From: Antedon mediterranea
Taxonomy: Eukaryota; Animalia; Echinodermata
Reading direction: 5' to 3'
NCBI RefSeq assembly: GCF_964355755.1
Contig: NC_092670.1
Coordinates: 18,586,795 to 18,650,794, forward strand
Length of the DNA: 64,000 nucleotides
Of the stretch, positions 6,101-57,454 are shown piece after piece. A model generated the notes under the pieces. The model ran no database searches. It was not told where the DNA came from and saw only the letters and a program-made list of their open reading frames with translations. The translations under genes were made by a program, and so were the position numbers. Position 1 is the first letter of the stretch, and every line of letters begins with the position of its first letter.

Positions 6101-9100
6101 ATTTATATTTTGAACTATAAGTAGATATAATATAAACAGATTGAGTAGATGTATGTGTGTTGACTGCAATAGTGTTATGTTGTGTATTTAGATGCAGAAG
6201 GTCCAGTTCCATTGGAGATACCAGATCAGTGGCTTTGGGATATCATTGATGAATTCATATACCAGGTAAACTATTTGGTTACTCACTCATGCCCAATTAA
6301 ACAGTAGTTGTTGAGAAATAACCAATTGAATAGGACCTTTTCGCTGATATGCGAAATGAATAGTTTTTTTTTGGAAGTAAAATACATGGTTGTGGTTCAT
6401 TTTAATAACTTTTTTACCATGGCTAAACACTTTATATAAGTACAGTTATTTGGAAAGTATAATACACAAAATGAATTATGTTCTTTATGTATAAAGCCTT
6501 GTTTACACTATCAAACTTTATATTACATCAAAATAAAGATGTCATATTACTACCATATTTGGGCATATCACTACCAACCATATTTGGGCATATCGATACC
6601 ATATTTGAGCACTTTCTTTGTAAAACTAGTTTGGTAGTGTAGACAGAGATTAAGTCCACAAATATAAGGTTTGTTATTTAGTATTAATGTGCTGAAACGC
6701 ATCCTTTATCATTTATTTTTTACAATACTAAGTGCAGTGAACTAATAGTGTGGTTTATTTATATATTAGTTTCAAGAATTCAGCAAGTATCGATCCAAAT
6801 TGAACAACAAAACAGACACTGAAATTGAAATATTAAAACAGAATCCAAAAGTAAGTTTTATGTGATGTTAATTTATTTGTTTACAAAATTATTATTTATT
6901 TTTACCTTGAACTTTTATTAGTATAAATAATTAAATGTCACTATTTAAATTTAAAGAAACTCGTTTTTTTATTTCTAATAGATCTGGAATGTACACAGCG
7001 TTCTCAATGTACTTCACTCTCTTGTTGAGAAATCAAATATCAACCAACAATTAGAGGTGTATGCCACGCAAGGTATGTAAACATTTTCTTTCAATTCATG
7101 CTGGTACTGGTACAAATAGCTATCTTTTCTAAGATATTCAAAATACAGTTTAAATCAGTGTTCCAAAGACAGTGATTTTAAAATATGTCCTTTAATGGTA
7201 ATTGGGTCTGTACCACTGTTATGGTGGGTAATGATAGAGGGTTGATTTACATACATAGGTGATCCAGACAGTGTGGCCGGAGACTTTGGACGTAATCCAC
7301 TCTACAAGATGTTGGGATACTTCAGTCTTATTGGTCTTCTTCGTTTGCACTCGTTGCTAGGCGACTACTATCAAGCAATTAAAGCACTTGAAAATATTGA
7401 GTTGAACAAAAAGGTATGTTTTTGTATAATAATGAATGATACTTTTTTAACTACTGTGGAACAATATTGGTGCAGTACCCGCTGCTTACTTCAGCTCGAA
7501 CCCAACTCGGCCATCTGCGCAGGCTCGGTGGTCTAGATGTATGAACGCCAGGTTAGTGATCTGGAGGTTGTGGGTGAGAGTCCCATCCTGAGAGTTACTG
7601 AATGGTACAAAATTACATCAGAGTAAGGCAAACATCTGAACAAATGTTTCTTTGATATTGATTGATTACCTTGCAGTATCGTAACAGCTATAAGCGCTCA
7701 CTGGCTAAACCCAGGGTCCCCAAAGCTCAAGGTGCCCCAGAGCATAAGCAGTCCAATGCAACTAGCCAGCGTTAGAGGGCCCCTTAGGTGTGCTAAACCA
7801 GGGGCTTTTTCCCTGTGTGTTACGCCACTGTTGCCTTGGGTTGTTTTTCTTATTTTGTTTCTTTTCTCTTTGTAGAGTTTGTATTCTCGAGTACCAGCAT
7901 GCCAAGTTACCACATACTACTACGTGGGGTTTGCATACCTTATGATGCGCCGGTATCAGGACGCAACCCGAAGCTTTGCTAACATCCTGCTTTACATACA
8001 AAGAACGATGCGTCTGTTGCCACCAACTTCCTATCAGACTGACTTTGTAAGTATACTTAAAGATCTGTGTCAACATGCTTACTGTAGTATAATTACCAAA
8101 GATTAAGCACATGTAATGTAATTATTAATGCAATAGTATTGTGGGTAATATTCTATTTTTAGATCAAGAGTCTATTACTAAAGATTAAGCACATGTAATG
8201 TAATTATTAATGCAATAGTATTGTGGGTAATATTCTATTTTTAGATCAAGAGTCTATTACTAAAGATTAAGCACATGTAATGTAATTATTAATGCAATAG
8301 TATTGTGGGTAATATTCTATTTTTAGATCAAGAGTCTATTACTAAAGATTAAGCACATGTAATGTAAATATTAATGCGCTTGCATTGTGGGTAATATTCT
8401 ATTTTTAGATCAAGAAGATGAATGAACAGATGTACACTCTGCTTGCTATGTGCCTGACTCTTCATCCAATGCGAATCGATGAGAGTATTCACATGCAGAT
8501 GCGTGATAAAGTCGGTGATCGACATGGCCGTATGCAGAAAGGGTAAGTTTCTAATTAATAAATTTGTTGCTATGGTTTATGTTAATATTTGATAATTAAT
8601 AACACAAAACTTCCTTACAACTTGAATACAAATTTTCAGCATTGAAATTAATTGTATAAACTTTTCTTATCTAGAGACATTGCAGCATTCCAAGAGTGTT
8701 TCGTGTTTGCTGCTCCCAGATTTCTGTCACCAGTTCCACCAAATTATGATGTCCCTCTAGCCAACTACCACAAGGAACCCTCAATGTTGCAGACAAAAGT
8801 GTTCTTGGAAGAAGTCCGACAACAACTGCTGATTCCAGAAATTAGAAGGTACGATCTTCTTAGGTAGTTGTAAAATAAAAAGTAATGCTCTGTCTACACT
8901 ATAAAATTGTATGCGACAAAAAAGTGTGATGTGCCCAAATATGGTAGTGATATGGCCAAGTATGGTAGTGGTATTACATCATCATGTCCATATATGGGCA
9001 CATCACATTTTTTGGTCACATAAAATTTGATAGTGTAGACAGAGCTTAATGTAATTTCTATTGTATTTTAATTTGTTATCTGTTTATCATATTAATTTGA

Positions 9101-11504: not shown

Positions 11505-12494
11505 ATCAATCAACAAATTCATTTACACCCAAATCTCTTCTTTTTTTTTCAAAGAGAGTGTTCAAGAACTCAAATTTATATACAATGACCTATGACCTGG
11601 ACTGTTATTGTCATTGCCTTAAAAGCAATAGATTTTAGTTTAAACTATTTGTGAATTAAATAGGCTAATATAAAATGTTTTACCTACATTGTATCAGCTA
11701 TAAAAGTATTGTGTATCATTTCTTATCAGTTAGTTTTGAAATTATTTAACTGTCAGACTTAACGTAGAAATCCCCCCAAAAAAGGCAACACACCTGAATT
11801 TGATTTTGTAAGACTATATTAGAGAAATTAGAATTTACAGATCACTGTATAAAAGAAATAAAATGCCTAAAAAAGCAATTTGAGCAGTGTTTATTTTGTT
11901 TACAATGTAATAGCCACAACAAAATGTTTGTACGATTCTGAATAAGTTTTCTATACACCACCATCGGGCTCTGATGACCGGCCAATGGTGGCGCCCTCTA
12001 TTTTTTAACCTTGATTATTATTATGAATCAATCGCGTGCACCACCGCCGGCGTGGCGGCACAGAAGCACATCACTCGCAATTAGGCCTAACTAAGAAAAA
12101 GGGTAGGTGATCATTTTTGGCATAACAAATACTTTTTAATTATTTTTGAAAAAGCACAAAAATATTATAATTTTGAGCTTCAATATTGACATGTTGTTTG
12201 TATGTTAAATAGTAGTACAATAGTAATAGTTGAAGTACAAAATTATTGGACGCTTGGTACCAAATATAGTCGACTGGTACTATGCCTAGGCCTAAGCCTC
12301 TAGCGCGCAATGGAATCCTCCACTATTTGTAGCGGAAGAGAAAGGTGGCGCACTATCCATTTAATATATATTGGTCAATTCGTACCAATTTGTGTCACTT
12401 AATAATTTGAGTAATTATAAAAAACAAAAAATAGTATAATAAATAATTTTTGCTAGGGAGAAAGGAAGTGTTCTTTGCAAGTTTTGAATTAAAA

Positions 12495-15400
12495 ATGCAG
12501 AACTCTGACACTGTTGTTGAATCAACTGAAGACGAAGTTAATCGCTTAATTGAATATACCTGTGCAGAACCTGAAGATGATGGTTTAGATAAAGATGTGC
12601 AAATTATTAAAGGTATAAACTAATAATATAATAAAGGAATTCTATATTAATATTAAATTAATTAAAATAAATTCAATTCTACTGTGGACTGCTGTCATAG
12701 CCTGTGATTGTGTATAGCGAATACAGTTAAGATTTTCTGAATGTTTCATCAAAAAAAAAATTGTCTAATTAAAAAACAAATTTTTAGTAAATATTGCTGT
12801 TCTGACATAGAGAAGTGGAAATAAAGGTGCCCTCACACAGAACAACATGAGTATCGATCATGCGGTTTGAGGGGATATTACAGAATATACACATTTTGAG
12901 TTAATGCTATTATAATGCTTATTATTATGCTTTTGTCATTTCAGACAGTCTGATTTCAAAAATTGAAAGTGCTGATCCAGAATTAAATCAGTAGGTTTTT
13001 TATTTTTAACAGTTTTAAAATCCTACCATAAGTAAAATAATGTATTGTCCTTGCTTGTGGCTCATTAACCATGGTGGAAAACATATTCACAAATTTATTT
13101 CCACATTTCCTATAACCTGTGTATTTGCATTATTCAGGAATGATGGAGTAGTCCCAGAGACTGAATCTGATGTGGTTTTTACTGTTGCTGAATCCGGCTC
13201 ACAGCGTGGATGTCGTCTTCTCTTGGACAGCAGAGGTTATTCATACACAGTTAAAGTATGCACTTCTTGTTCATGGTACATATAAAGGCCTCAGGGGAGG
13301 ATCCAAAGTGGGTGCCCAGGCCCCCAGCCCCCACCTAAATTTTGCAAATTGTAATGCAAAAGATAGGACATCCAATTAAGCTCAGCCCTTCATTTTACAA
13401 TTTTTAGGACCTGGGCTGCCTATTTCAATATTCTGAAAACACCACTAGGCTTGCCCGACTTTGGCTACACTGGTATGGTGCAACCAGTTTCAAGGAGATA
13501 TAGTTCTTAACTAGAGTGTTAACACCATTCAGGAATTAATCTATGTAACTTATACAATTTTAAATGTTTTATCCGTCATTTTACAAGATTTTAATAGTTT
13601 TCTTGTTTTAACATTCTGCTATTTTTTATTTTACCATTTTTTATAAATATTTCCTCTTTTAACTGAACTCATACTTACAACCTATTTTAGGGTTTTATTG
13701 AGTTCCATTTTTTGTCAGTAATTTTAACTTTTTATTGTATTCATGTTTTTTAAAAAACAAAATAAAGATTGAATTGAAGTGAAAGCCGTTCACTACTACC
13801 AAATGAAAAATGAAATGAAGTTCCTCAATTGAAATGTTCTATTTGTTTTCAGCTTTATGGGAAAACAGGCACTTGGTGGTGGTGCTCAATGCGTAACAGG
13901 ACAAAGCGTTGTCTGGCAACTGTGAAGCAGATGCCAAACGGATTTAGGATAGGCAAGAAAGAACACAGCCATGAGCCTAAACCGAAAACAATATCTAAAG
14001 TTAACATTTATACAGAGGTAATTTGATTGTATTTAATGACGCAGAAACATTTTGATGTTGAAATGATTATTTATTAAATAAATCATCATTCAAATTAAGT
14101 GGCTCATAGCTGGATGGAATAAACTTTAGTAGATTGGGAATGGTTGTTTTATGTATTTTTCTGCTTTTCTCATTGGTGAAAGGACAGAGGGAAGTATGCT
14201 ATTTTTGAAATTAGCCCTGATTTGGATACTTGTGAATTTAACTATAATTATTACTACCATGGGCTTACAACTGAGCTTCTTAATGCTTATTCATTTTTTT
14301 TCTAGATTAAAAGGCTCTCAAAATCACAGATCAATGACACTGCTCGAAACATAGTAGCTCATGTAATACGTAAACATTGTGATTCCCAAACACTACTTGA
14401 GACATTGCCCTCTACAGCAACGCTGATACGACTTGCCAATAGGGCACGGGAAACTCTACGTCCAACTCATCCGAAGAACCTAAATTTCAAGGTAGAATTT
14501 ATTTTTCTCATAAACAAAAGTTTATCGTCTTCGTTTATATTATGGAAGTATGTTTCCATACCAGGGTAATAATATGCAGCGCATTGAGAGCTTGCTTATA
14601 TGCGCTATATAAGGATGAACTGTTATTATGTTATTGTCTAGCAAAGTTACATTAATTGGTAAATATTGATTTTATTCCAAAGATCAATGAAGAATTTATG
14701 CCAGAAGATTTCATTAAGGGTGATATGCACTGTGATGCTGACCACCATATCCTGATGGCCACTACAGACCAACTGTCCATTCTGGCTGATACTAAAATCT
14801 GGTTGGTTGACTGCACCAATAAGGTATAGTTGTGTTATTAAGCTCTGTCTACACTATCAAACTTTATGTGATAACCAAAAGATGAGTGATGTGCCCATAT
14901 ATGGACACGATGCCATACCACCACCATATTGAGACACGTCACACTTTTTTTGTCAAACTAGTTTGATAGTGTAGACAAAGCTTTAGAATTGTGACCATTT
15001 CAAAACATAGTTTCTTACTATCAGCCTTTTGATTTCTGTGCCTCCTCAGGTCTAGGCATGTCCCTAGTACAACTATGAATATTAAAACATAAATAAAAAT
15101 CAATAGGATAGGCCCTGTTTATGTGGTTAATGTTTACTACCATTAAAATCTTTATTCTCTCATGTTTACAGTTTGTTCGTAAACCTTTCACGCATCTTCT
15201 AACAATACAAACATTTATTCGTCTACAACGTGATCTACACACAATTCCATTGGCTTTTGTTTTGATGTCAAATAATCGAATGCGTGATTACAATTCTGTA
15301 AGTATCTATTTGTGCGTTCACAACATACATATTTATATTGATTTCCAACCTTTTGGATAATTAAATAGTTTTTGTATACAGGAACTTTAGCTAGTGAGTA

Positions 15401-18400
15401 ACTAAATATCTTATGGTGAAATGAGAATACAGTAGTAGAACCCCTCATTTGAGACATCTCTATTAAAGGGACACCCTATTAAAGGGACACCTCTATTAAA
15501 GGGACACCCCTATTAAAGGGACACCTCTATTAAAGGGACACCCCTATTAAAGGGACACCTATTAAAGGGACACACCCCTATTAAAGAGACACCCCTATTA
15601 AAGGGACACCCCTATTAAAGGGACACCCCTATTAAAGGGACACCTCTATTAAAGGGACACCTCTATTAAAGGGACACCTCTATTAAAGGGACACCCCTAT
15701 TAAAGGGACACCCCTATTAAAGGGACACCCCTATTAAAGGGACACCTCTATTAAAGGGACACCTCTATTAAAGGGACACCTCTATTAAAGGGACACCTCT
15801 ATTAAAGGGACACCCCTATTAAAGGGACACCCCTATTAAAGGGACACCCCTATTAAAGGGACACCCCTATTAAAGGGACACCCCTATTAAAGGGACACCT
15901 CTATTAAAGGGACACCCCTATTAAAGGGACACCTCTATTAAAGGGACACCCCTATTAAAGGGACACCTCTATTAAAGGGACACCCCTATTAAAGGGACAC
16001 CTCTATTAAAGGGACACCCCTATTAAAGGAACACCCCTATTAAAGGGACACCCCTATTAAAGGGACACCCCTATTAAAGGGACACCCCTATTAAAGGGAC
16101 ACCCCTATTAAAGACACCCTTATTTAGGAGACACCCTTATTTAGGAGACACCCCTATTAAAGGGACACTTTTCTACAGAACTAATGAGAGGAAATACATG
16201 TTTTAACATTATGGCCATTATGACATTATGGTTACACCAGTGTACTAGTTCACACACACACACACTGGACAGACGTAATGGCGCCGTAGTTGGCTGCCGA
16301 TGACACGAGTCCCCGTAATAGAGGTTCTAATGTACTGTACTCTTATATCCTTGTGTATTAAAATACAAAATTAAAAATGTTTTTTATTCTGTACTTTTAT
16401 CTTTTAGGTTTTAGAACTTTTACTTAAGATTCTCCCCCATCGGCATCGTGTCAGAAAATGTATACTTCCTTTAAAGATCCCATTATGGAAGGCGTTTAAA
16501 TCTAATATGCCAAGAACTTCTCTTCAAGGATGCTCTTTCCATTGGATTCAAGAAGTCCAAAAGAAATCGCAGAAAACACTTAACGATGTAAGTGATTGTT
16601 GTAAGACATAATTATATATTGATAATGTCGATGACCCTCCACTGCACCCTGTCTCAGCATAGGACAATCCAAAACCAATTCTGAAATACTAGCTAACTTT
16701 TTTGAGACATAGTATGTGGTCCAGAGGATAGACAAAATAGCTTTTATAGTACAGTTGCCAGAAGGGGTATCGTGCACCCCCGGAAATATTTGTTAATTGA
16801 TGCCACTACACTAAAAAAAATTGCATAGAAATTGATTTTCTATGTTAACACACACACGCATAGAGTTTCCCATTTACCTTTTTTATGAAAATTAGTGCCA
16901 CCTGAGTAACATAGACAATTGTTTTCCACACAATTTTATATAGTCTAGTGGTATCAATTAAAAAAAATATTTATGGTGGGGGTGGGGGGTGATGATACCC
17001 CCTCGGGAGGGAAATTGTACTATTAATGCAAATTATTTTTAATAAAATACTGTAATATAACAATAATAAAATGAATTTTTTTAAGGCAATACAATTACAA
17101 GTATTAGCGTTAGTTTACTTGCCACCTGAAGAAATCAAAGAAGCACTTACAAGGTAAGAAGCAGATATTTTATTTCTTGTTGTTTTTGTCTCAACACTGA
17201 GATGCCTTTTTCACTCGAGCTCCTGTGAATACGGTGCCGACGAGCTCTCATACGGGACCTTCAAAGTGCTAGAGAATGGAGCAGTGTAAAGGGTTCCTTT
17301 GCTTTTCTTCATTTTTTTTATCAACTTTCAATGGATCATTTTTGTGTGTAAATTGCTTAGAAACATTATATTAGGCGCTATAAGACTATCATTATTATTA
17401 AACCTTCAAGGTGCAGAAGGAAAACCAAGTCTTTTTCCAAAGGTTGAGGCTACAGTGCCTTTATTACATACTCTAATTCTTCTTAAAGCTCTGTCTACAA
17501 CTCAAACTAATTTACAAAAAAAGTGTAATGTGCCTAAATATGGCAGTGATATGACATCATCGTATCCATATATGGGTTACATTTTTTGTCACATGAAGTA
17601 TGTACTTAATCATAGCCAGAGATGAAACCTTTCCTACTGGAAACCAACCACGATCATAACTGCACTTTTTATAATGTTGTTTTCAGAATAGAAAAAAATA
17701 CTAAGAAATGTCCAGCTGCACAAAGCCTTATTCAATATGTTCGTAAACAATGGGTTAATCATGCTTATTGGGAACCAAAAGATTGGAGTACGTTTGACGG
17801 AATCTTACGGACAACTGAGGCTGTTGAGGGCTGGCAAGACAAAATGGATAAAGCAGATGGTAGATTTGAAATTGATTTTTCCTTTATTTATTATTACTTT
17901 ATAAACAATCTTCTTGGCAAATTTAATGTTTCAAATTAAAATTCAATTTGGCTGTTGGCTGTATATTTTTAAAACAATCATATCTTTAATATCATTTTGT
18001 AGGTAAACACTTATGCTCTGTCTACACTATCAAACTTTATGTGACAAAAAATGTAATGTGCCCATATATGGACATGATGATGTCATACCACTACCATATT
18101 TGGGCACATCACACTTTTCTTGTCAAATTAGTTTGATAGCGTAGAGAGAGCTTAAAGAATTTCAATCCTTTGATTTGATGATTTAACTTACTACTTCAAA
18201 TGTATTTATTGGATAGAAGTAAGTTGCACAAGTAGTTGCACCACAATCAATCAATTTCTCAAAACATTCACCAAAATCAATATGAGCGAATCACTCTGTT
18301 GGATGCATACCTAATGGACCACTATCTCATTATTATTGTTTTAGAGACTGTTGGGTTGTACAAATTAGTAAATCAACTTCATACAGTATCAATTGATATA

Positions 18401-18800
18401 CCACTACAATGGAAATTGGTATCTGAGGGGAAATTGAATTCCGCACAAAGGTCACAGGTACTGTTTTGCCAGGTTTTTTTTGCATACTTTCTGTATACTA
18501 GTTATTGCAATAGAAAGATAAACAGTATTCTTACTTACGTATTGTTGACTATCCACCTTTCAAAGTTTCTTTCTGTTGTCTTTCCATTCTAATTCTCCTT
18601 CCCTTTCTAACTTCAGCACCCTGTTGCCCAAAAGTTAATACTGTAGCATTTTCAGTTCTTCTAATTATTTTTTTTCACTTTTATAGGACCGTTTTCAGCC
18701 AAACGAGTTATTTAGACTCTGGCGTAAATATTTGAAGAGCAAGATAACTGTAGAAGAACTTTTAGATGGCTGCACGTACCTGGATTATCCATTACCGTGA
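12495..18800 (+). CDS. FLYWCH zinc finger + MULE transposase-domain protein, paralog 1 (domesticated Mutator-like transposase, 12 coding exons)
   Basis: Approximate exons 12495-12612, 12945-12990, 13138-13255, 13853-14017, 14306-14491, 14683-14823, 15172-15297, 16408-16587, 17086-17152, 17687-17859, 18345-18457, 18687-18800, joining in phase without stops. FLYWCH: LLLDSRGYSYTVK..WWCSMRNRTKRCLATV..EHSH. MULE: WLVDCTNK, IPLAFVLMS, QGCSFHWIQ, LALVYLP, YVRKQWV, RTTEAVEGWQ. Confidence 0.88.
15428..16339. repeat. 17-bp minisatellite (ctattaaagggacacc[c/t], about 40 copies) expanded inside a Tc1/mariner-like MITE
   Basis: Array 15459-16168; element ends tacagtagtagaacccctc ... gaggttctaatgtactgta. 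Confidence 0.9.
16745..17025. mobile_element. Non-autonomous inverted-repeat element
   Basis: atagtacagttgcc..ggggtatc..ccccc..aaatatttgttaattgatgccacta mirrors tagtggtatcaattaaaaaaaatattt..ggggg..gatacccc..aaattgtactat. Confidence 0.65.
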
Positions 18801-21246
18801 AAGAAACACGTACCCAAAGGATTTTAGATTATTCTGTATTACCTTTTACATGACATTTGCATACATGACTGTTATGAATGAACATAATACTGAGTTGACA
18901 ATGGATTTACACAAATCTTTTGAAGAATCATCTGTCACTGTTGAAGGGTTTTGTCTTTGTGGGTAAAGAAAAGAATAATCATGTAATCAAATGTATAATA
19001 CTGTACATTCATTATTGAAATAAAACTTTTTAAGCAGCACAAATAAATGTTTATATGATTTATTTTTATGTTTCTTTAGCAAGTTTAAAAAAATATAGTT
19101 TTTAAGTACAAAAATAAAAACAATATTAAATAATATCAAACTGTAAGAAAATACATGATGGATATTATAACAGTGAGATGAGATATATTATAAGTACAGT
19201 ATGGTAAAAGTATGTTATTGTTTTTTTATTTTAGAGAAAAAAAACACGTGTGATGTTTGTTTATGTTTTTTAAGACATGCGCAAAAGTTTATTCTAAAGA
19301 TTGTTATAGCGCCCCCGCGTAGCGTGGAGCTAGCGAGAGAGAGAGCGGCGCTATACACAGTCTTCTTAGGCCTAGTTCTTTTTTATGCATGGTAAGTAAG
19401 GGCAAAGCTAAACAGTTTATATTCACTATTTTTAACGTTTTTATGCCGTTGTAGCTTTTGATACTATTATCAATCTAAACACTATTGAGTCTAGACTGAA
19501 AATAAAGTGTCGAATACAACAAAAGGTATTAAAAAATGGTCATTTTGAACCAATTTTAGTCGATTCGTACTAAAAACCTTAACGGGATTAGCTTTCCCAC
19601 CACGCGCTGCCTGAACAATTTTCGCGGGCGTGGTCGGTTTGTACATACTGCTTGGCATTATTGCACAGACTGACCGGCCACATTGTGTTTTGCCAATTGT
19701 ACAGAGTCGCTTCGCTCCCATCTCGGGTCATTTTGACCTGAGTGATTAACAAATGCAATTGTTAATTAGGCTATTTGTATCAAATGATGTATTTTTAAAT
19801 GACATTTTAGTTTATTATAATAATATTTTAAGTAATAATACAGTATAGCCTAGATAGGCCTAGCCTAGGCCTAACTAGTAAATGAATAGTGCCATACACA
19901 CAGTATAGGCCTAGTAGTAATACAGTAATCCACTACAGTACTAAGGGTCCACTGTTGTAAATATACAGTAGTTGTACTGTGTTGTTGCTGGTGTGTGACC
20001 AAAACAACATTTTCTATGGGACGCCAATACTGTCGCAGCTACATACAAGCCAATACTGTACAGCACCGCCGTACAGTATTCTGAATATTGATTTATTATG
20101 AACTTACAGTAAGCCTATGAAACCAACCAATATGTTTAAAGATGTATTGTCCCTTTGACTAATTCCAAAAAAATTTTTAAAAAAGATTTCGAAAAAAGGT
20201 GGGTCATTTTGAAGTATCATAATAGTTTATATTAACTTTCACAAAAAATTTGTCTAAAAAAAAATAACTTTGACTTCCGGTCAAAGTTTTCTATCAAAAC
20301 ATATCTCATAATGCAACGTGCTTGTTTGGCTACTCTGTATGCATAATCATAAAACGCGATATGTTTTTTGAAAACACCTTCTCAACCGTGACGAGTTGTA
20401 AACAATCCTAATTAGCATACATGAGTAGCATGCATACTAATTTACCTGTTAATTACGTAAACTTGTTGTTTTTGGCTCGAATTTTCAACTTAAAGTGAAT
20501 GACTTTGATATGGCCAATTTAAATTTAGATTACTTTGACCTTCATTTTTTTGTGTTTCAAGGGACAATACATGTTCTTATGAAAATAATGATTATTATAA
20601 TCATTCACCGTTCTAAGCGCAGTATATAGGTTAAAGCAGTACAACAATAACATATAAAAAGATAAATATGGTATGTCAATATTTTCAAGTTAAAATGGGT
20701 AAAAATAGGAACGTACTCTAATTTAATATTTAGTAAAGCTATTTATATTGTTATTTATTAAAATATTAGGTCCATAGTGAATTCAATAAAATATTAAATT
20801 GTGTAATAATATTCAAAAGACTACGAAAATACAATATAGTATTAACATCTTAATATTATGCCAATAAGTTTTTTCATAAGTACATGTTATTCCTTCTGAA
20901 TAATATATTTTGTATATAATAATATTTTTTTTATTTTTTTTTTATACACATCTAAATATATTGTTTATTATAAATTTAATTGTTAAGATCATGTGACTGC
21001 TGACTTTTGAAGTTGTATCTTGTTTACTTTAGCAACTGACCAAATCAAATCTCTGTATGATTTGTTGGTCAAATAAATGAAATATGTACCTTATCACGAA
21101 AGATGCATAATTATGATTTGAATATAATTGTCTGTTTACTGTATGTCTTTATTATTTATTTCTTGTGTTAAATAGCTAAATTTCATGTTGTGTAAAATAC
21201 AGGTTAAGTGTCTTTTTTGATAGGTGGAATTTTGCGGGAATCCAAG

Positions 21247-24200
21247 ATGGAGAAGAATGTATCGGAAGAAGAAGCTGCAGGAGATGTAGAAGCTGAATCC
21301 ACAAATTGTAAAAAAGGTAAGGGGAATCCCCAGTGGCATAATGCTGAGGCCCCTGGTTTAGGAACCTTAAGTTTCCCGTCCAACGCTGGAGGCCTTGGAT
21401 ATATTTAGCCTTTTTCAACATATTCTAATGCCAGTTTTTTCCTCTTGGCCCTGCTCAGTGACCCCCATTAGCCCCTGGGTTTAGCCAGTGAGCGCTCATA
21501 GCCGTTATGCCACTGGGAATCCCTTCATTTACAGTACCCTCTCTAAAAACGATACATTCCTGTTTGGTAAAACTGAACATGGTTCATCATTTTGAAATCT
21601 CCAGCTGGCTGAAATTGTGTATAATGAGAGTTCAAAACCCTAGTTTTAATTTTTACTTTTGCTTTTCATCAAATTGCAGTAAATGATTTTCTTATTTCCA
21701 GAATCAGAAATGTCATTGCCCATGGAGCTAGGCCCTATTGAACAAGATGTACAGATGATTAAAGGTAAGAAAACATGCATCACAGGCCTTTATCTTTTAA
21801 AAATTGCAGGGGTGCTGTTTGTATCTTGATGTGTTGGTGGCCTATAAATCGCACACCATGAAGACATTTTATCAGTGTGTAGGCGAGTGATCGCACTCCC
21901 ACCCCTCAAAAGACCAGGCCTGGCATCAACTACAGAGATCTGTAGGTGGTTTAACATAATTGATTTAAAAGGCCACAATCCATTGCCCAATGCTGTGTTC
22001 AGTTCATGTATACTACCATGAAGACGTTTTCTAATATCTCTATTATACTACACTGGTGACTGAGAGTGGTACATTACTACAGTATATCAGTATTTGCTAT
22101 TGTTTTCAGAACTTCAATCGACTCAAGTAAGAACAATTCAAGAAGAGCTACAGCTTATAAAAGGTAGATAAAGCTCTGTCTACACTATCAAACTAGTTTG
22201 ACAAAAAAGTGTAATGTGCCCAGATATTCGATGGTTGTCATATGACATCATGTCCATATATGGGCACATCACATTTTTTTTGTCACATAAAGTTTGTAAA
22301 GTGTAGACAGAGCTTAACTGTAGATTGTGTAACAAATGATCGTGGTGGTATTAGTAGTAATCAATCAGTCTTGAAATTTAGCTATAAATACAACACTTTA
22401 TTGGGTTGTTCCAACAACAATCTAAAACATAGTCTCTCTATCCTCAACACCCACAAAGTCTCACCCTGAACGCCCTCTATAGAGTGATGTTCACTTATAG
22501 GGTTTCAATTGCACAGCCCAATATGCCTTTTTCCAAACCTAAACTAGCATTACAAAATTGAAGTATAGACCATGTTGTGTTGATCTTTTTGTTAAATATC
22601 TCTGGTTCTAGTAATCCTTGCCAGTTGGCTAGTTCAGATGAGATTGAATGAGACTTAAACTGGGTTAGTTTTAAAGCTCTCATTTACATAATTGTTATGA
22701 TTATATTTTTATATCTTTTTAGAAACTCGGAATGCAGCAATGTCTATCGTTAGGTAAGTTAGTTGATTTTTAGTTGGTAAAAGTATTTTATTTGTGGAAA
22801 GTTACTTTTTGAAAGTTTTATTGTCATTTATTGATAAGTGAAATATATCATTAAATATGTACAAAAAAGAAATTTGATTAAGTCACATTTTGAATAACTA
22901 ACAATTAAAATTTCATTTTTATTTTGAGCCAACCTATCACCATTTTCTTTTCACTGTTGTCCAATACTTGTATCAACTACTGTAGCTATTTTTTGCAACT
23001 TTCTTTTCAGTGAAGACCCTGCAGCCGAAGAAACAGTTTCTCTATCAGATGGAGTAGTAGTCCTACAGTAAGTATTAGTTTTATTTATGAATATTATTAC
23101 AGTCAACTCTTTCAATACCCTTGGTCTGGCCTAATACGTCTGTATCATAGATTCTATAATCGTGTGCGTATATGTTTCTTTACGTCATGACAAGCAAGAA
23201 TTTCTCCAAAAGATTTCAACAAAGATAAAATTTATTTTGTCAATGAACCACATTTTGAACGGTTAATAAAGGCGTATAGAAGTCAAGAGGAATATCCAAC
23301 TCATATTCCAAATATGTTTTGATGGTAAAGAATTTTGGAACTTGTGATTCTGGTTATCAGATAATTCAATTATGAGAGTTAACTGTATAAAATATTTTTA
23401 TTTCTAATTGTTCTTTTGTATAGAAATGACATTGATATGTCTGAGATTGTTGGTCCGGTCTATACGATTGCTGATAATGGAACAAAGCGTGGAGGGCGTC
23501 TGCTTCTGGATAGTAGAGGATTCTCATTTACAGTCAAGGTACAGTATTACTTATTTAAAGCTTGCAAATTGCCTTTCTTGTATTCATACTTCAATTAACA
23601 AGAGTTCTAGTAAGCTTAAAATTATTTTGTACATGCCCCTTACACTTATACAATACTCTGAAGTTTACACACTGGAGTGTCAACACTGGTGTTGCACATA
23701 CCGTACTGTCAACACTGGTGTTGCACATACCAGAGTGTCAACACTGGTGTTACACATACTGGAGTGTCCACACTGGTGTTACACATACCAGAGTGTCAAC
23801 ACTGGTGTTACACATACTGGAGTGTCCACACTGGTGTTACACATACTAGAGTGTCAACACTGGTGTTACACATACCGGAGTGGCAACACTGGTGTTACAC
23901 ATACTAGAGTGTCAACACTGGTGTTACACATACCAGAGGGTCAACACTGGTGTCACACATACTGGAGTGTCAAAACTGGTGTTACACATACTAGAGTTTC
24001 AACACTGGTGTTACACATACCGGAGTGTCAACACTGGTGTCACACATACCGGAGTGTCAACAATGGTGTTACACATACCAGAGTAACAACACTGGTGTTA
24101 TACATATCAGAGTGATAACACTGGTGGTATACATACCGGAGTAACAACACCGGTGTTACACACACACACCAGTGTCAACACTAGTGTTACACATACTTGA

Positions 24201-27200
24201 GTGTCAACACTGGTGTGTTTAAACTCTGGAGTTTGAAGAGGGTAATAATTTAGTTTATTACTGTAAATGTATTCAATGAAGAGTACAGATTGACATACCA
24301 TCATATATTTACTGACAGCTTCAAGGAAAAAATACCACTACCTGGAAATGCAGTGTTCGGAATAAAGTGAACCGTTGTCCTGCTTCCATCAAGCAGACAC
24401 TGGAGGGCTTCAAAGAAGGAAAGCAAAGCCACAATCATGAACCTAAACCAAAATCGATTACTAAAGTTAACATTATAACTGAGGTATGCTTTTTATCAGT
24501 CTAATTTTCTGACCTCTATACATGTTTACAATGATTTCATTTGTTACTACCTAAATTACAGTAGTGTTAGTCTACTAAAGTTAACATTATAACTGAGGCA
24601 TGCTTTTTATCAGTCTAATTTTCTGACCTCTATACATGTATACAATGATTTCATTTGTTACTACCTAAATTACAGTAGTGTTAGTCTACTAAAGTTAACA
24701 TAACAGAGGTATGCTTTTAATTAATTTTCAGACCTCTATAGGCCTACATCTATACAATGATTTCTCTTATTACTTATATTAGTGTTAGCATCTATTAGTA
24801 CTGTATTATACTAATGCGTGGTTCCCACTAGCGACGCAACGCAAGGACGTAACGCAACGCAAGTGAATTGACCAATCACAAGCGATGGCTTATTCGCTTG
24901 TGATTGCTAACTGTCTATAACTTCGCTTGTCATTGGTTAAAACGCTTGCGTTGCGTTTACGTCCTTGCGTTACGTTCTACTGGGAACCAAGCTTTACTTT
25001 GTTATCTCCTGCAACAATCTAATTTAGACGGGAGTAAACACATTATAAACATTTGTTATTCGGTTTTTACAGATCAAAGAGCGTTCAAGGCTAATGATGA
25101 ATGATACTGCTCGCAAGGTAGTTAGGGATGTGGTATCTAAATATTACAATGCAGGAATTGTGGCTGGAGGACTGCCAAGCACTCCAGTGTTAATAAGACT
25201 TGCAAATAGAGCAAGGGCTACGTTACGGCCTAACAATCCAAAGAATTTAAATTTCAAGGTAATTCTTACAAAACAATGTGATGTGCCCGTATATGGACAC
25301 AATGATGTCATATCACACAGAGATTTAGTCCTTATTTTTTTTTCTACCTGTTTCTACCTTATGCATAACACTCACTATATAACATACAGGGTACATAAAT
25401 TAATTCATTAATTTGATTTTATTTTCACTTTTTTAGATAAATGACCATTACATGCCTCAAGACTTTATTAAAGCTGATATACAGTGTGATTCTGACCGCC
25501 ATATCTTAATGGCCTCAAATGACCAACTGTCCATTTTGGCCGATACTAAAATCTGGTTGGTTGACTGCACAAACAAGGTAAGTTGAAGTACAGTATGTGT
25601 AAGATTAGTGGCGTTGTAGCTGGGTGGTTTGCTGCTTGTCTTAAATATACCACAGTCCTCTGTTCAACTCCCAGGCCTCTGCAATATGTTTAATACCACT
25701 CTATTACATTACAAATTTGATTTTTAATTATTTCTTTTTTAGCATTGTCTGGTTCTTGCCTTTCTTACTATTCCTTAAAAATGTGCATATTTTTAAAATT
25801 ATGAATGATAAAATGATTAATTTTAATATGTTTTTTCCTACAGTTTGTGCAACATCCCTTTACACATGTCTTATCAATCCAGACGTATGTGCGCCTGGAA
25901 CTTGAAGTGATTCTAATACCACTTGCTTTTGTTTTGATGTCAAAACATCGCCAACGTGACTATAAAGCGGTGAGTGTAACAAACCAACTGATTTGTTTTG
26001 TTGTAATGTAATTCTAGACAAGTTTGAAATGCAAACTATATTACTGTATTCACTATTTCAATAAAGTTACATTTTATGATGTTGTAAAAATCACTGTAAA
26101 TACACGTTATTATGGTTACCATTATAATACCAAAAAAATGTACGATTGATGGAATAAAGTTACATATACATACTGTTATAGGAACACTTTTTAACCCAAC
26201 TAGTGTCCACTGAATATTATTTAAAGTTACAGTAAAATCACTATTAAAGGGACACGTTTTGAACCCAACTAAGTCTCCCCTGAATATTATTTAAAGTTAC
26301 TGTACAGTAAAACCACAATAAAGGGACACTTTTTGAACCCAACTAAGTCTCCCCTGAATATTATTTAAAGTTGAAGTAGAACCACTATTAAGGGGACACG
26401 TTTTGAACCCAACTAAGTTTTCCCTTAATAGTATTTAAAGTTAAAATAGAACCACTATTAAAGGGACACTTTTTGAACCCAACTAAGTCTCCCCTTAATA
26501 GTATTTAAAGTTAAAATAGAACCACTATTAAAGGGACACGTTTTGAACCCAACTAAGTCTCCCCTGAATAGTATTTAAAGTTAAAATAGAACCACTATTA
26601 AAGGGACACGTTTTGAACCCAACTAAGTCTCCCCTTAATAGTATTTAAAGTTAAAATAGAACCACTATTAAAGGGACACGTTTTGAACCCAACTAAGTCT
26701 CCCCTTAATAGTATTTAAAGTTAAAATAGAACCACTATTAAAGGGACACGTTTTGAACCCAACTAAGTCTCCCCTTAATAGTATTTAAAGTTAAAATAGA
26801 ACCACTATTAAAGGGACACGTTTTGAACCCAACTAAGTCTCCCCTTAATAGTATTTAAAGTTAAAATAGAACCACTATTAAAGGGACACGTTTTGAACCC
26901 AACTAAGTCTCCCCTTAATAGTATTTAAAGTTAAAATAGAACCACTATTAAAGGGACACGTTTTGAACCCAACTAAGTCTCCCCTTAATAGTATTTAAAG
27001 TTAAAGTAGAACCACTATTAAAGGGACACTTTTTGCATCCACAAAGTGTCCCTTAATATTTATTAGTGGCTTTAGTGTTAAGTTGCCCCTTATTTGTGTC
27101 AAGTCTTCGATTTCAATTTGTTTCCACAAACATATAGCAACACAGTTATGATAAAACAAATTCTTCAATTCAATTCACATTTATGTACTCATCGTTTATA

Positions 27201-29416
27201 AATACAGTTTCATTGCATAAATGATGGCAAGGATCCTGCATAGAGAAGTTTACACTTCTGTTTTCGCAGGACCCTTTTACATAAAAAACATAAAACAATA
27301 AACACAAGATAATAGATACAAAATAAAAAAAAACATTTCCTATATACATTTTAGAGTTGTTCATCATCAAAAAGCGATAGTCTTTTTCCAACATGATTAT
27401 TTATACATTTTTTCTTAAAAAAGAAGATATTCAGTTTATTACTTCCAGTACATGTGGATTCTTTCTATATATATATTATAGCAAATGCAGTTTAAAAGTT
27501 TAGTTTCACGTTCATTAGGTGTGTCTCCTGAATAGGGTGTGTCCCCTGAATAGGGTGTTTCCCCTGAATAGGGTGTGTCTCAAAAGAGGGATTTACTGTA
27601 TTAGCATAATATGTTCTACAATCTGTACCTAATAGGTTCTCGAACACCTTGTTAAACTTCTACCACACAGACAGTCTGTCAAAAAGGCTGTGCTGGATTT
27701 TGATGTTCCGTTGTGGAAGGCGTTTCAGTCTGCAATGCCCAACGTATTGATTCAAGGCTGTGCATTCCATTGGATGAAGAACATCAAGAAAAAAATGCCA
27801 AGAACAAAACTAGTAAGTATGCGTAACGTAAAGTTTCTGTCAGTGATAGAACCTCATGACTATTTTTGTATGATGGCAGTTATTTATTTTACCATGTTTC
27901 GCGAGTGGAACCCTGCCAGCGTGTGCTGATTTTATGGAGGGCCTCAACAAGACAATTAACATGACAACAAATTAGTATAAAATATGACAAATATATAGAG
28001 ATAGTGACATTGGTACTATTGTCTTCACCAAAGTACAAGAATATCATACTGATTTCTTTCTGCTTTAAAACATGTTGTTTTTAATTAATCTATGTATTTT
28101 AGGAGGCAGAAATTAGTTTATCAAGGAAAATAATGGCTTTAGTGTACTTGCCATCTGAGGAGATACCAGATGCTCTAATTAGGTAAGGAATTTAAAATCC
28201 AAATAAACACAACATCACCATTTACAGTATATAAATCCTTTCCAAAGATCAAAGTCATTTACATGGACTGATCAGAGAAGAGTCTCTAACACTAATCAGT
28301 GAATTTATTGTGAAACCAAATTACAGTATTACCGGTATTATTTCTTTATTTTTAAACGAACCTCCATGCTTCTATATGCAAGACAGTATTAATGTGGTTT
28401 TCATATTCAGGTTACAGAAAAAAAACAAAAAGTGCCAAAGCCTATTCAGTCATGTTGAAAGCAACTGGGTGAAACACACTTTTTGGAGACCACATCATTG
28501 GAGTGTTTTTGAACAAGTTGTACGAACAGAGACCGATGTTGAAGAATGGCACAGGAAAATAGAAAAGCACATAGATGGTAAGATTGCTTTGTTATCTGTG
28601 TGCATGCTCATACATATTCATGACGTATTAAAGTTGAGATAGCTACCCAGTAGGTACGCAATTACTTGCCTTTGTTGCTAGGCCTAGCATAAGAGATGGA
28701 ATACAAATGATTCATAGCTATTAATATATTGTGTAAATCTTGGCCAATGAATATAATGTAATGTAAACCCCATATCATCTTTATTGTAAGTTTTAATGCT
28801 TGTAAATTTTTATTGTAAGTTTTAATGCGTGTCATTTTAAGATTTATCCATTTAAGTATTGTGATGTATGTACGGCGCTCTGGGAAGGGGCCTTATAAAT
28901 ACCATATATTATTATTATTATTTGTTTTATAGGGAAAACGACCGGTTTGTATGAATTAGTTGGTCAATTTGACAGCATATCAAAACTTGATTTACCAGCG
29001 CATTGGAAATTAGTATCTGAAGAGAAACTCTGTAGTCTAAAAAAGGTAAGGAAACGGTACAGTGATGTGAGTGATTAGAATAATTTAATTCAGTTCTTTA
29101 TTAATATATCAAACAAATTTGATAAAATTAACGTCAAGAAGGTAAGCAAAAAAACAAGCAAATAAACAATATCAGAACTTTCATTTCAAAAACAATTATG
29201 TCTCCTAAAAAAGGCGGAGTTACAGTAACATAATTGATAACGGGCAAAATAGGGTTTCAACTCCATTCTCTAAACCTAAATATTTATTTTGGTTTTTCCC
29301 CCCAGAAACAATGGCAACATGCAAAGTTATTCAGACTGTGGAAGAAGTATTTAAAACACAGGATAAGCATTGAAGACCTCCTTGAATCCTGCACCATTCT
29401 GGACTTCCCAATCTAA
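21247..29416 (+). CDS. FLYWCH zinc finger + MULE transposase-domain protein, paralog 2 (15 coding exons)
   Basis: Approximate exon starts 21247, 21702, 22110, 22723, 23011, 23424, 24319, 25073, 25437, 25844, 27636, 28103, 28411, 28933, 29306; same intron positions as paralog 1 through the core. Motifs LLLDSRGFSFTVK..WKCSVRNKVNRCPASI..SHNH, WLVDCTNK, AVLDFDVPLWKAFQSAMPNVLIQGCAFHW, VRTETDVEEWH. A probable non-coding first exon ends near 19391 (atg|gtaagt). Confidence 0.88.
21331..21515. mobile_element. hAT-type MITE (family C)
   Basis: TIR cagtggcataa / ttatgccactg with a perfect 8-bp TSD ggaatccc. Confidence 0.9.
23668..24215. repeat. 29-bp quasi-palindromic minisatellite, about 18 copies, intronic
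   Basis: Unit acacataccagagtgtcaacactggtgtt; source of the spurious repetitive ORFs at 23408-24115. Confidence 0.95.
24460..24740 (+). repeat. 114-bp tandem duplication x3 including an exon end and splice donor
   Basis: actaaagttaacattataactgag|gtatgc at about 24460, 24574 (gc instead of gt) and 24688. Confidence 0.9.
24814..24995. mobile_element. MITE family B (TIR agc[g/t]tggttcccactag, Harbinger-like); representative copy
   Basis: Near-identical copies at 44792-44972 and 47516-47699; older relatives near 44741, 52905, 50970, 34270. Confidence 0.9.
26175..27060. repeat. 70-bp tandem repeat, about 12 copies, derived from a Tc1/mariner-like MITE end
   Basis: Unit accactattaaagggacacgttttgaacccaactaagtctccccttaatagtatttaaagttaaaataga; MITE right end gagggatttactgta near 27600. 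Confidence 0.92.
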
Positions 29417-30353: not shown

Positions 30354-32089
30354 ATGACAAAACAAAGGACAAATAAAAGACCAAAATCTTATTACATCAA
30401 GTCTGCTCATAAGAAGGGCAAGTATGCCGAGCAGGAGCTGGATGCTGGAATGAAAGGATTCATAATAACCTGCAATTACAACGAGTTTAAATGCAGACAA
30501 GATGCTTATCAACTCTTAAATGAATATGCTGATGAAATGTATGGCCCAGCAGTTCAAGGCTTTGTAAAAGGTATATGTTGTTTGTTTTGTCTTATTTGAG
30601 ACAACTTTCAGGTCTTATCCATCTTCATTCACTGGAAGCTGAGATTGTTGTCTCAGCTGGAAGTGAGAATATGTTCTGTGGATTGAGTAACTAAGTAACA
30701 AAAAATACATGTAGAAACTGCTGATTGGATTATGGTTATGTGTTCAAGAAAATGGAGATTTTAAACAATTATATTATTTTGATTTATAAAATAATTTTCC
30801 CATTAGTCTTTGTACATATACTGTACTTTCCTCATTCATAACTTTATTTTTTCTTTAGAAGAAGAAAGTGATGATGATGATGAGGAAGATTTTGATTTGG
30901 CATTGAAAAAGGAAGTATCCAGCATAAAAGAGAGAAAGCAATTTAGATTCCAGGCGTTAAAAACTAGTGCAAACAATGTGTTGTTTATTAAAGCTGATGT
31001 AAGTACACATTTGCTATACATGTCAGCTGCTACTGCTATGGTCTCTTGACATGGTTGTGCTCCCCACTTTGCTTTCGTTTAAAGGGAAGACACCTTTTTT
31101 TTATAGTAAAACTGTATACCTGCTTTCACTTAGTACCAGATGATATTCACTTGAAGCAATAGTTTATAACTCGACTGCTTCATGGTTACAGGATGGAGCT
31201 ATACAATTGTATAGCTCCATGGTTAAAGAAACTGCTCTTGCATGGCTTGTCGTCTGGCTTTTGATTCATTCAGACTATTATTAAGACATTTAAGTGTTAT
31301 TTAAATGTTATTTTTATCTAGATTGAAAATCCATGCGAGCTAGCCCATTACATTCTCAGTGATCTCCAAGAAACAAAGAAGTTAAAATCACGCGCCATCC
31401 TTCGTCTTCTCCCTGTCAGCGGAACGTGTAAAACCTACGACGACAAGTTAGAGCAACTTGCAGACAAAATTGTTGCACCTCATTTTGAATTTTCATGTAA
31501 AACATATATGTATGTTATTAAAATAAGAATCAATACCACTGTGAAAAGCAAGACTATTATGGGTATCTTGGATAGGATTATTCGGAGGAATGAAGATTTG
31601 AATCATCGGGCAAACATGGATAATCCGGAATTGGTCATCCTTGTTGAAGTTATCCGTAATGTATGTTGCATGAGCGTTATCAAGGATTTCAAGAAGTTTA
31701 GGAAGTATAACTTGCATTCCATTGTTGAAGTTCTTGAAGATAAAAAGGAAGGAAAAGAAGAAAGCAAAAGAGATGGAGAAATAGAAGAAAACCAGGATAG
31801 TGCAGAAACTGAAGAAAAGAAGGATAGCGGAGAAACGGGAGAAAACAAGGATAGTGGAGAAAAAGAAAAACACAAAGATAGTGGAGCAAACAATACTTCT
31901 GGTAATGGTAAACCAGAAGAAATAAAGACTGAAAAGGCTGAACAGGATAAATGTGAAGGATTGCAAAAAGCTGGTGGAGAACAAAAAGAACCAACAACAG
32001 ATAAGAAGATGGTAGATGTCAATACTATAAAAGAGGAAGCTGTGGATGTTGATGATGAACCAAAACTAGAAACAAATGCCAGTAACTAA
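30354..32089 (+). CDS. THUMPD1: THUMP domain-containing protein 1 (tRNA acetylation adaptor)
   Basis: Exons about 30354-30570, 30859-30998, 31322-32089; GMKGFIITCN..E.KC..DAYQLLNEYADEMYG, LKKEV..IK..RFQ..NNVLFI, SRAILRLLPVSGTCK, NPELVILVEVIRNVCCMSVIKDFKKFRKYNL, acidic tail. Confidence 0.95.
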
Positions 32090-35621: not shown

Positions 35622-36648
35622 TTAAGTCTTCAAAGCAACAAACTTCAAAGACTCTGAGAATATTCAAAAGCGCGATTTGCCATCAGGACCGTCGGTAAGA
35701 AATTCATGCCCCAAACCATTACCACATTTTCCACAGGATACCTACACAAAACAAAATCTCTTGGTCAAAATTTTGTGAAGCGATAGGAAGGTGTCACAAC
35801 ATTGATCGGTTTGCAGAGAATCGAAAATTGGAAAATATAATTGCAGGAGCAATGACTTATCTCTGAAATAGCGCTATACAAAGAATTTATTCATAAAAAA
35901 AGTTTATATATACTTCCTTGTTGACTTACTTTTAAGGCATTCTTGCTTTCTTCTCTTTTGGAGACACTGTCAGCGTGAATGGTATCTGTAAATGCAGGCC
36001 AAGGTGACGAGTGTTTGTATTTCTTCTTGCTGTCAAATAGTTCATAGCCACATTTTGAGCATGTGTACATACCTTGGAAAAAAAACATTAAAATAATACC
36101 TTTTTTGCGTTTACTATATTACGGACACAACAAAACGCAAGAGATTTCAAACACTACTTGGATCTGGTTTGTTAAAAAACAATTTGACTACTACTACTAG
36201 GCCTAGGTCTACTTCTACTGACAGGGAAAAATTTCATTTTAAAATCAAATTGATTTTTGAGTTGAGAAACATAGTTTTGAATTGTATTTTTTGCTAGACA
36301 ATTTTAGAAATGTGTACAGTACAGTGTAGCAATAAGGTTTTTTTGTATAGCTTTTTGCTATGCTACACTGGCGAAATTATTCCCTGATTGACTAAACTAG
36401 CTAAAAGCTAGGAACAACAACTAGGCCTACTTCCGCCTAAATATGGAGAGACAGGGCCTGTTGGTTCTACTCTCTCTGATCTAGCCCTAGCCTATCCAGG
36501 GAGAGAGGCCGAATGCCCTACTCTCTCTCTATAATTTAAGTCTAGCTAGCTAGGCCTAACCCTAAAAAACAGTAAATTTTGGGTCGAAATTACCATCTTT
36601 AAAATGGTCTTTGTACTTTTCCCCAGAAAACCACCCACAGTACGACAT
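35622..36648 (-). CDS. MSRB1: Methionine-R-sulfoxide reductase B1, selenoprotein (in-frame TGA = Sec at 35664-35666)
   Basis: [105 protein letters not shown]; matches the MsrB1 motif SRFUIFS, two CxxC zinc motifs and the N-terminal resolving Cys; SECIS downstream. Confidence 0.96.
36222..36386. mobile_element. CAGGG...CCCTG MITE, second copy (inverted relative to 4150-4324), in MSRB1 intron 1
   Basis: tgctatgctacactggcgaaattattccctg is the reverse complement of the start of the 4150 copy; flanks actga / attga. Confidence 0.85.
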
Positions 36649-56226: not shown

Positions 56227-57454
56227 ATGTCAGCACCTCAACAACCTCCACCTGAAGAGAAACCCCCAGCATATAATGGCCAAGGGATGATGCCACCAAA
56301 AATGGCCAATGGTGCACCACAAGGCTATGGCATGCCACCACCTGGATATACAAGTAAGGACTGTCATTATTATGGCTATATTGTATGTTCTAACAGTACA
56401 TTGAATTTGTATTCTGTGTAATGTATTAAATTATGCTTATCACTAATTATGTAACCTGGAAATTTATCTTTATCATTTCAATTTACGTTTTAGTCCAGTA
56501 AAATTACATCTTATTATAAATTTCTTCATTTAATTATCTCTTTATATATTGTTCTGATCTTATTTTTGAGATGAAGATAATGATCTATACAAAATTTACT
56601 GTAAAGTGCTGAAATCCAAATTTATAAGAACATTTTTTTATATGGCCGCCACTTTATACTTGAGTATTTATTATTATTAAACATCAAAAGCTTTGGAAAT
56701 ATTTATCAACTATGAATCATAATGACTTGAGGCATGGAGTGAGAGAATCAATGAATTGCTAACATAGAGCAGTCTACCAGCATACTATATCTAATTATGA
56801 TATAATAAAATGACTGTACTGTATTACACATAATCAATAAAGTAATCAATGTTGAGAAATAAGGGGATTTTCAAACATTGTAAAATAGTCAGCAATAAAT
56901 ATTATGCTGTTACTGAATATGAATAAAACTTATACTCCAAATAAAAGATTAAATCAACCTTTCGATTTTTATTGGATCATCATCAGTGTATCATATTTAT
57001 TTTAATACCTACCTACCTTATAGTGTTGGTATGGTTGGTATTTGTATTTATAATGCATTTTAATTTAAATATATGTAGTATAATTTAATGCAGTGACCAT
57101 TTCTTTATTATACAGTTCTAATTTATATAATAATTAAAGCATGTAATTGGTTATAAAATAACTTTTTATTTTTATTTTCTAGGCTACCAATCAGGGGCAC
57201 CACCAGGTTATCAGCCAGCGCCACCACAACCAGGATACCCCCCTCAACAGGCATACGGCCAACCAGTCACAGTCACGCACACCACAAATGTGGTTGTTGT
57301 AGGTGGGTGCCCTGCCTGTCGAGTTGGTGTTCTCGAAGATGATTTTACCGTCCTTGGTGTGCTCTGTGCCATTTTATTTTTTCCGCTCGGAATTCTGTGC
57401 TGTTTAGCAATGAGGCAGAGGCGATGCCCAAATTGCGGAGCTGTATTTGGTTAA
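56227..57454 (+). CDS. BRI3: Brain protein I3, the most conserved copy
   Basis: Exons 56227-56353 and 57183-57454; EKPPAY...VVVVGGCPACRVGVLEDDFTVLGVLCAILFFPLGILCCLAMRQRRCPNCGAVFG*, close to the vertebrate BRI3 C-terminus. Confidence 0.95.

Follow-up and report, generated by a model that had tools for sequence, protein, structure and literature searches.

Among Mutator-like elements (MULEs), the Phantom/Muta type makes up group 20 (PMC6446971, in the sections available). In Muta1, a member from Aedes aegypti, replacement of any of the catalytic D, D or E residues with alanine abolished transposition (PMC5225508, likewise in part). In plants, whole MULE transposases have become host genes in the FAR1/FHY3 and MUSTANG families, and FAR1 and FHY3 form a paralogue pair that serves as transcription factors (PMC8616336, accessible sections). 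Here we describe a tandem gene pair, A and B, in a 64,000-nucleotide stretch of the feather star Antedon mediterranea (contig NC_092670.1; hereafter the window), which an earlier note had read, from the letters alone, as two domesticated FLYWCH–MULE transposase genes. The pair very probably consists of domesticated host genes, and the claim that these were built from whole transposases was supported: a counterpart appears to lie on the THUMPD1 scaffold of another feather star, no dispersed near-identical copies were found in two DNA runs, and spliced contigs exist for both genes.

Splice sites were enumerated at the expected places and joined into open frames. Gene A has 12 coding exons for 515 amino acids (ATG at 12495, stop codon 18798–18800), and gene B has 15 coding exons for 551 amino acids (ATG at 21247, stop codon ending at 29416). 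All 25 introns of the two genes have GT-AG ends and there are no internal stops, which gave the two-gene claim exact coordinates and uninterrupted frames. Two Antedon mediterranea proteins were retrieved with a single B exon as query. The model of gene A equals NCBI protein P0002 (XP_071948621) letter for letter, and that of gene B equals P0001 (XP_071962323) minus its first 10 residues. The NCBI start of gene B, ATGCATG at 19385–19391 directly before a GT donor, is spliced to 21224 and yields 16 coding exons and 561 amino acids. The coding exons, in window positions, are:

12495-12612, 12945-12990, 13138-13255, 13853-14017, 14306-14491, 14683-14823, + strand: gene A, exons 1–6
15172-15297, 16408-16587, 17086-17153, 17687-17859, 18345-18457, 18687-18800, + strand: gene A, exons 7–12
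19385-19391, 21224-21316, 21702-21764, 22110-22163, 22723-22753, + strand: gene B (19385..29416), first part, beginning with the 7 coding bases of the NCBI model
23011-23067, 23424-23538, 24319-24483, 25073-25258, 25437-25577, 25844-25969, + strand: gene B, middle exons
27636-27812, 28103-28182, 28411-28577, 28933-29045, 29306-29416, + strand: gene B, last exons

Among the 11 introns of gene A, 7 match a gene B intron in both alignment column and phase, 3 share the phase and lie 1–2 columns off in gappy stretches, and 1 is ambiguous; the shared intron positions claimed earlier thus hold exactly for seven and nearly for three. The block DQLSILADTKIWLVDCTNK is identical in proteins A and B, as had been noticed. 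Promoter-like 5′ regions had also been proposed, and the ratio of observed to expected CpG (CpG o/e), mostly 0.1–0.7 within the gene bodies, agreed with this, since its peaks upstream of A and at the first exon of B are consistent with promoters. The CpG-rich stretch of gene B sits about 400 bases past the 3′ end of gene A. Offsets of contigs from run X5, a single run of assembled contigs whose RNA status is a guess, suggest a 5′ untranslated region (UTR) of about 112 bases for gene A.

12000..12399: likely promoter and non-coding first exon of gene A; CpG o/e 1.05
19200..19599: CpG-rich stretch that includes the first exon of gene B (donor 19391); CpG o/e 1.34; NCBI N-terminus MHG
18801..18963, + strand: 3′ UTR of gene A, as far as the X5 contig extends

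Protein B passed both curated Pfam cut-offs, with MULE at 30.3 bits (cut-off 27.6) and FLYWCH at 27.5 (cut-off 23.6). Anneissia japonica has a counterpart, P0003 (LOC117117559, two isoforms), which shares 61% identity with B in BLASTP and whose FLYWCH score lies below the Pfam cut-off. The FLYWCH ligands C, C, H and H are present in all three crinoid proteins. The proposed architecture of FLYWCH, DDE core and CxxH therefore stood for FLYWCH and CxxH, whereas the DDE part is incomplete in A and has non-canonical surroundings in all three. The corresponding positions are:

13138..14017, + strand: FLYWCH zinc finger of A, intron-split; C, C, H, H kept
23424..24483, + strand: FLYWCH zinc finger of B, interrupted by the same intron as in A; C, C, H, H kept
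14809..14811, + strand: first catalytic Asp (D1) of A, D254, in DCTN, not DGTF
16468..16470, + strand: Pro321 of A, at the second catalytic Asp (D2) site; Ser in a related organism
17826..17828, + strand: catalytic Glu of A, E430, in RTTEAVE, not RTNNDVE
25563..25565, + strand: first catalytic Asp of B, D300 (P0001 numbering)
27696..27698, + strand: second catalytic Asp of B, D367 (P0001 numbering), kept
28541..28543, + strand: catalytic Glu of B, E476 (P0001 numbering), in RTETDVE

The D-D-E triad is complete in B and the Anneissia protein, with non-canonical neighbours, and broken at D2 in A. In 63 full-length relatives, D1, D2 and E are present in 58, 55 and 55, respectively. All three crinoid proteins retain D1, E, C388xxH391, W451 and W462 (P0001 numbering). 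In all three, the Phe of DGTF (found in 48/63 relatives) is replaced by Asn and both Asn residues of RTNN (53/63 and 56/63) are substituted. A set of 66 positions is conserved in at least 85% of 39 canonical relatives. The three crinoid proteins all retain 40 of these, and 26 are altered in at least one; F303, N472, N473, N483 and the GL..Y segment are changed in all three. Moreover, the D2–E spacing is 109–114 compared with a median of 119 in the relatives, and the insertion domain is shortened in every crinoid protein. If the rule established for Muta1 holds here, the Pro at D2 predicts that protein A is unable to cut and that gene A is catalytically dead. Erosion around D1 and E, common to all three proteins, suggests that the chemistry may have been lost or altered before the duplication, and B and the Anneissia protein, with an altered pocket, are likely to be weak or dead as nucleases.

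AlphaFold models of the A/B pair reached predicted local distance difference test values of 85 and 86 and are confident outside the low-confidence N-termini. Among solved structures, the ISCth4 transposase (PDB 6xgx/6xg8; E 5e-7, probability 1.0) was the closest match to the B model. The MULE RNase H-like domain and its fold were thus supported by the Pfam MULE match, Atlas features (0.97) and the ISCth4 fold match; FAR1, MuDR or SWIM domains gave no Pfam match in the pair at E up to 1. Identity between B and the Anneissia protein was 70% in the linker, 69% in the core, 60% in FLYWCH, 47% in the C-terminus and 46% in the insertion domain. The N-terminal tails, modelled with low confidence, are acidic (in A, 18 D/E per 62 residues). 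They carry a motif, DVQ(I/M)IK(D/E), that each of the three crinoid genes encodes and that 0 of 149 relatives share; in B it occurs twice, apparently via exon duplication. We take this motif to recall the pattern of a SUMO-interacting motif and regard it as a lead only.

The position of the gene in a second feather star was assessed through the downstream neighbour of the pair, which begins about 950 bases beyond gene B:

30366..32086, + strand: THUMPD1-like gene, synteny anchor; Pfam THUMP; P0005

P0003 and the Anneissia THUMPD1 are on contigs of equal size (472,813 bases), and their accessions are consecutive (P0003, XP_033117787/797; THUMPD1, 807/816). This is indirect but specific evidence that the Anneissia counterpart occupies the same locus beside THUMPD1. 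Anneissia is assigned to Comatulidae, that is, to another feather-star family than Antedon, which belongs to Antedonidae; the literature yielded no divergence date for the two. THUMPD1 of Antedon and Anneissia is 75% identical over its core, and against this value the 61% for B and P0003 corresponds to a host-gene-like rate.

Trees were computed as a quick tree of the first 45 of 66 aligned rows and as a 15-row tree with a topology test. The three crinoid proteins formed one clade (support 100) on a long stem of 0.9–1.3 changes per site, and A and B grouped together with an ultrafast bootstrap value of 92. The branches to A and B measured 0.34–0.39 plus 0.08, compared with 0.17 for Anneissia. 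The simplest reading is a duplication after the Antedon–Anneissia split, followed by faster change in both copies. The searches run found a single gene in Anneissia, which makes the domestication older than the pair; the description of the pair as lineage-specific accordingly applies to the duplication and not to the gene itself.

The copy number was evaluated in DNA runs matched at 80–85% likeness. Runs X1 (same organism), X6 and X8 (related organism) gave one contig per listed exon at flat depth, and X1 and X6 gave 37 and 42 records on 2.1 kb versus tens of thousands over miniature inverted-repeat transposable elements (MITEs). A protein search with residues 95–561 of B returned 3 proteins among 8000 candidates, namely B, A and one from Anneissia japonica. 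A profile search against 50% representatives gave 7842 proteins with E values of 0.001 or below; the full-length proteins among the best 150 of these were at most 35% identical, and the best other Antedon-named protein among 10 looked up was 31–33% identical. In viral contigs, 38 pattern matches included no relatives.

No inverted repeat bracketing gene A, gene B or the pair was found in the window flanks, whereas the free loci L006, L015, L021 and L058 have them; the earlier observation that flanking terminal inverted repeats (TIRs) are lacking was thereby confirmed. The sole strong flank match was a dispersed palindromic MITE. This MITE family, about 140 bases long, occupies about 11 window sites from 1011 to 47734 and is extremely abundant in the runs. 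Nothing in the window matched the end repeats of the four free elements. These free Phantom-type elements with inverted ends (L015:388-5644, L021, L058 and L006:130-3097) come from metagenomes, and in three of the four the ends are built from short tandem units.

In run X5, a 943-base contig (depth 46) covered exons 11–15 of gene B, extended into exon 10 and skipped 4/4 introns at their GT..AG ends; no X5 contig of gene B spanned introns in the stretch examined. A 1547-base contig (depth 88) carried exons 8 and 10 of gene A with 66 letters between them (exon 9 has 68 bases), a further contig covered the last exon and 3′ UTR of this gene, and unspliced pieces at gene A had a depth of 3–9. Run X9 did not cover the B exons and speaks neither for nor against expression.

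Comparison of A with B over 442 core codons gave dN 0.33 and dS 1.63 (nonsynonymous and synonymous substitutions per site), hence dN/dS of about 0.21, indicating purifying selection between the paralogues. Between the window and the related organism, among the differences listed between 27621 and 28300, 4/257 bases of B exons 11–12 differed, all four synonymous, compared with 31/277 intron bases (Fisher p 5e-6).

Intron richness had been put forward as a sign of domestication, and this equation was rejected. Of 80 metagenome loci with relatives, several of them near-duplicates, 45 have matches of 330 residues or more; of these long free Phantom-type loci, 25 have an intronless length and 20 carry extra DNA in the coding region. 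Automatic splice calls in free loci placed introns at 3 of the 9 core sites at which the crinoid genes have them, namely 196/0 (5 loci), 305/0 (4) and 347/0 (6); the other six core sites were absent from the free-locus sample. Locus L021 combines two of the three shared sites with inverted repeat ends. The chance of such an overlap is about 3e-4 under a simple model that takes no account of preferred insertion contexts. Some introns thus probably came with the element or were gained independently, and an intron count is unfit as a test of domestication.

The repeats inside both genes are MITEs and satellites, located in introns. The equivalent intron of both genes (15298-16407 in A; 25970-27635 in B) contains a repeat filled with satellite units, a 17-mer ×42 and a 70-mer ×13, with the common core TATTAAAGGGACAC, which occurs nowhere else in the window. 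Either a shared old insertion or repeated targeting would account for them.

We favour as probable the reading that a whole Phantom-type transposase was domesticated, with a likely later tandem duplication, and that the proteins are now nuclear DNA-binding regulators, similar in build to FAR1/FHY3, rather than transposases. In a feather-star ancestor, a whole Phantom-type Mutator transposase would have come to lie next to THUMPD1, and this gene would later have been duplicated in tandem to give A and B. The FLYWCH finger and helical linker may still read a DNA motif, probably related to the ancestral element ends; the RNase H-like core may persist as a folded scaffold through which the proteins contact DNA or self-associate; and the acidic N-terminal tail with DVQ(I/M)IK(D/E) would recruit host cofactors. 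We infer the regulatory function from sequence features: the linker, core and finger are the most conserved parts, and the tails are acidic and bear a crinoid-only motif.

Several points weigh against this reading. Protein A scored below both curated Pfam cut-offs (MULE 22.2, FLYWCH 14.5). The synteny in Anneissia was deduced from equal contig size and accession order, and two other topologies for the three genes stay unrejected in the approximately unbiased test (0.12 and 0.21). The evidence of expression comes from the single run X5 and covers A exons 8–12 and B exons 10–15. Exon 8 of gene A is less constrained, with 7/180 bases differing in the related organism; these amount to 2 residue changes and 3 silent codons, one residue change falling at the dead D2 site, and one of the 7 differences also varies within the Antedon organism of the window. 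Furthermore, active transposases are also under purifying selection, and dN/dS by itself does not discriminate between the two. Finally, the D-D-E triad, CxxH and both Trp residues are intact in B and in the Anneissia protein, so that catalysis may be possible in these two.

An unlikely alternative would make A and B domesticated transposon repressors, which bind active Phantom ends or poison transposases rather than regulate host genes. The whole transposase length is retained, C-terminal helices included, and the genome has other FLYWCH–MULE proteins such as P0014, as this alternative would expect. However, the long stem and the failure to find a close free relative indicate that present elements probably have different end sequences, and the unmatched end repeats of the four free elements also oppose it.

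It is improbable that B, together with the Anneissia protein, serves as a domesticated nuclease or recombinase of the host, with A, catalytically dead, as its partner or regulator, so that B would cut DNA for a host process and its dead twin would aim or restrain it. In favour of it, both B and the Anneissia protein retain D300, D367, E476, C388xxH391, W451 and W462, their cores share 69% identity compared with 44% between canonical relatives, and the D2-bearing exon of B shows silent changes only in the related organism, among the differences listed. However, F303, N472, N473, N483 and GL..Y, nearly universal in the 39 canonical relatives, are lost in all three proteins, and cognate TIRs were not found nearby. 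Moreover, the core of A is equally conserved (64–65%) despite the loss of D2, indicating that a conserved core does not require catalysis.

It is highly improbable that the genes are decaying relics, or transposons that lack TIRs or lost their mobility recently, rather than host genes. Free Phantom-type loci do have introns too, three of them at identical sites, and non-TIR MULE groups are on record (PMC6446971, sections available). Against this reading stand the counterpart on the THUMPD1 scaffold of another family, the single-contig cover, the silent-site excess, the spliced contigs and at least 26 open exons over two genes.

Further observations concern relatives of the pair. P0014, on a different Antedon chromosome of 25 Mb, has 741 amino acids, two FLYWCH fingers and annotated isoforms; its motifs are degenerate (DVNSK, DFV, CSYLW) and it falls outside the crinoid-pair clade, which makes it a candidate for a separate domestication event. 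Eight long relatives (P0019, P0023, P0031, P0037, P0039, P0040, P0051 and P0068) have degenerate catalytic motifs and are possibly further domesticated genes in other animals. P0008 (fish) and P0015 (crayfish) contain 9 and 6 tandem matched FLYWCH-region stretches, respectively. The remaining genes recognised in the window are:

7258..8849, + strand: EIF3L/Paf67-family gene, upstream neighbour of the pair; three exons, Pfam Paf67 on 3/3 scanned
657-830, + strand: SH3 exon of an ordinary neighbour gene
35957-36073, − strand: SelR/MsrB exon of an ordinary neighbour gene
38358-38519, + strand: ubiquitin-like exon of an ordinary neighbour gene
46025-46519, − strand: first of three similar proline-rich genes (of the three, the one scanned belongs to the BRI3 family)
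52163-52552, − strand: second of these
57134-57451, + strand: third of these

With regard to known systems, the pair derives from Phantom-type MULEs, lies outside the FAR1 and MUSTANG families and does not qualify as an autonomous element, which would show TIRs, target-site duplications of 8–10 bp and dispersed similar copies; no bracketing repeats were found in the flanks, and no such copies in the DNA runs. It resembles Phantom/Muta elements, as characterized in the available sections on them, in its N-terminal FLYWCH, DDE core, CxxH, conserved Trp, length of about 500 amino acids and possible introns; Muta1 was compared by description, outside the alignment. Phantom-type relatives, named and unnamed, share 30–35% identity with the crinoid proteins over the whole length. 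In contrast to Phantom/Muta elements, the crinoid pair has no TIRs, a single locus, degenerate DGTF and RTNN motifs, a shorter D2–E interval and, in A, a lost D2. The crinoid genes also have 9 core introns compared with at most 3 called per free Phantom-type locus. The likeness to ISCth4, a bacterial transposase of the IS256 family, is one of fold only, with 11–12% identity and a template modelling score of 0.31–0.34 by query. In Paramecium, PiggyMac and the Pgm-like partners form a catalytic/dead domesticated set in which one protein has the acidic triad and another lacks it. That system belongs to a different superfamily, and the crinoid pair has no sign of programmed DNA rearrangement.

The transposon-derived FLYWCH/FHY3-like factors of invertebrates are likewise lineage-restricted, Mutator-derived animal genes (PMC10027918, accessible text). 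However, those sets are described there as species-specific and without one-to-one homologues, whereas the crinoid gene has a cross-family counterpart; "echinoderm" and "crinoid" do not occur in the main text of that paper, whose supplements could list a crinoid protein. ZSWIM genes are not claimed as a vertebrate precedent, as a MULE origin is not stated in the accessible part of PMC10236294. A literature search gave no account of the crinoid locus among the titles and abstracts listed; for animals it yielded candidate lists and no account of a full FLYWCH–MULE gene with a cross-family counterpart, and none for crinoids. The locus sets three stages side by side: in Anneissia the gene is unduplicated, B is a copy that retains the triad, and A is one in which the triad is disrupted. 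This permits a direct test of whether catalysis is lost before or after a host role arises, in an emerging developmental model animal. The plant proteins carry FAR1/MuDR and SWIM domains without FLYWCH, and their origin is independent of that of the crinoid pair. Whole-transposase MULE domestication is well described in plants.

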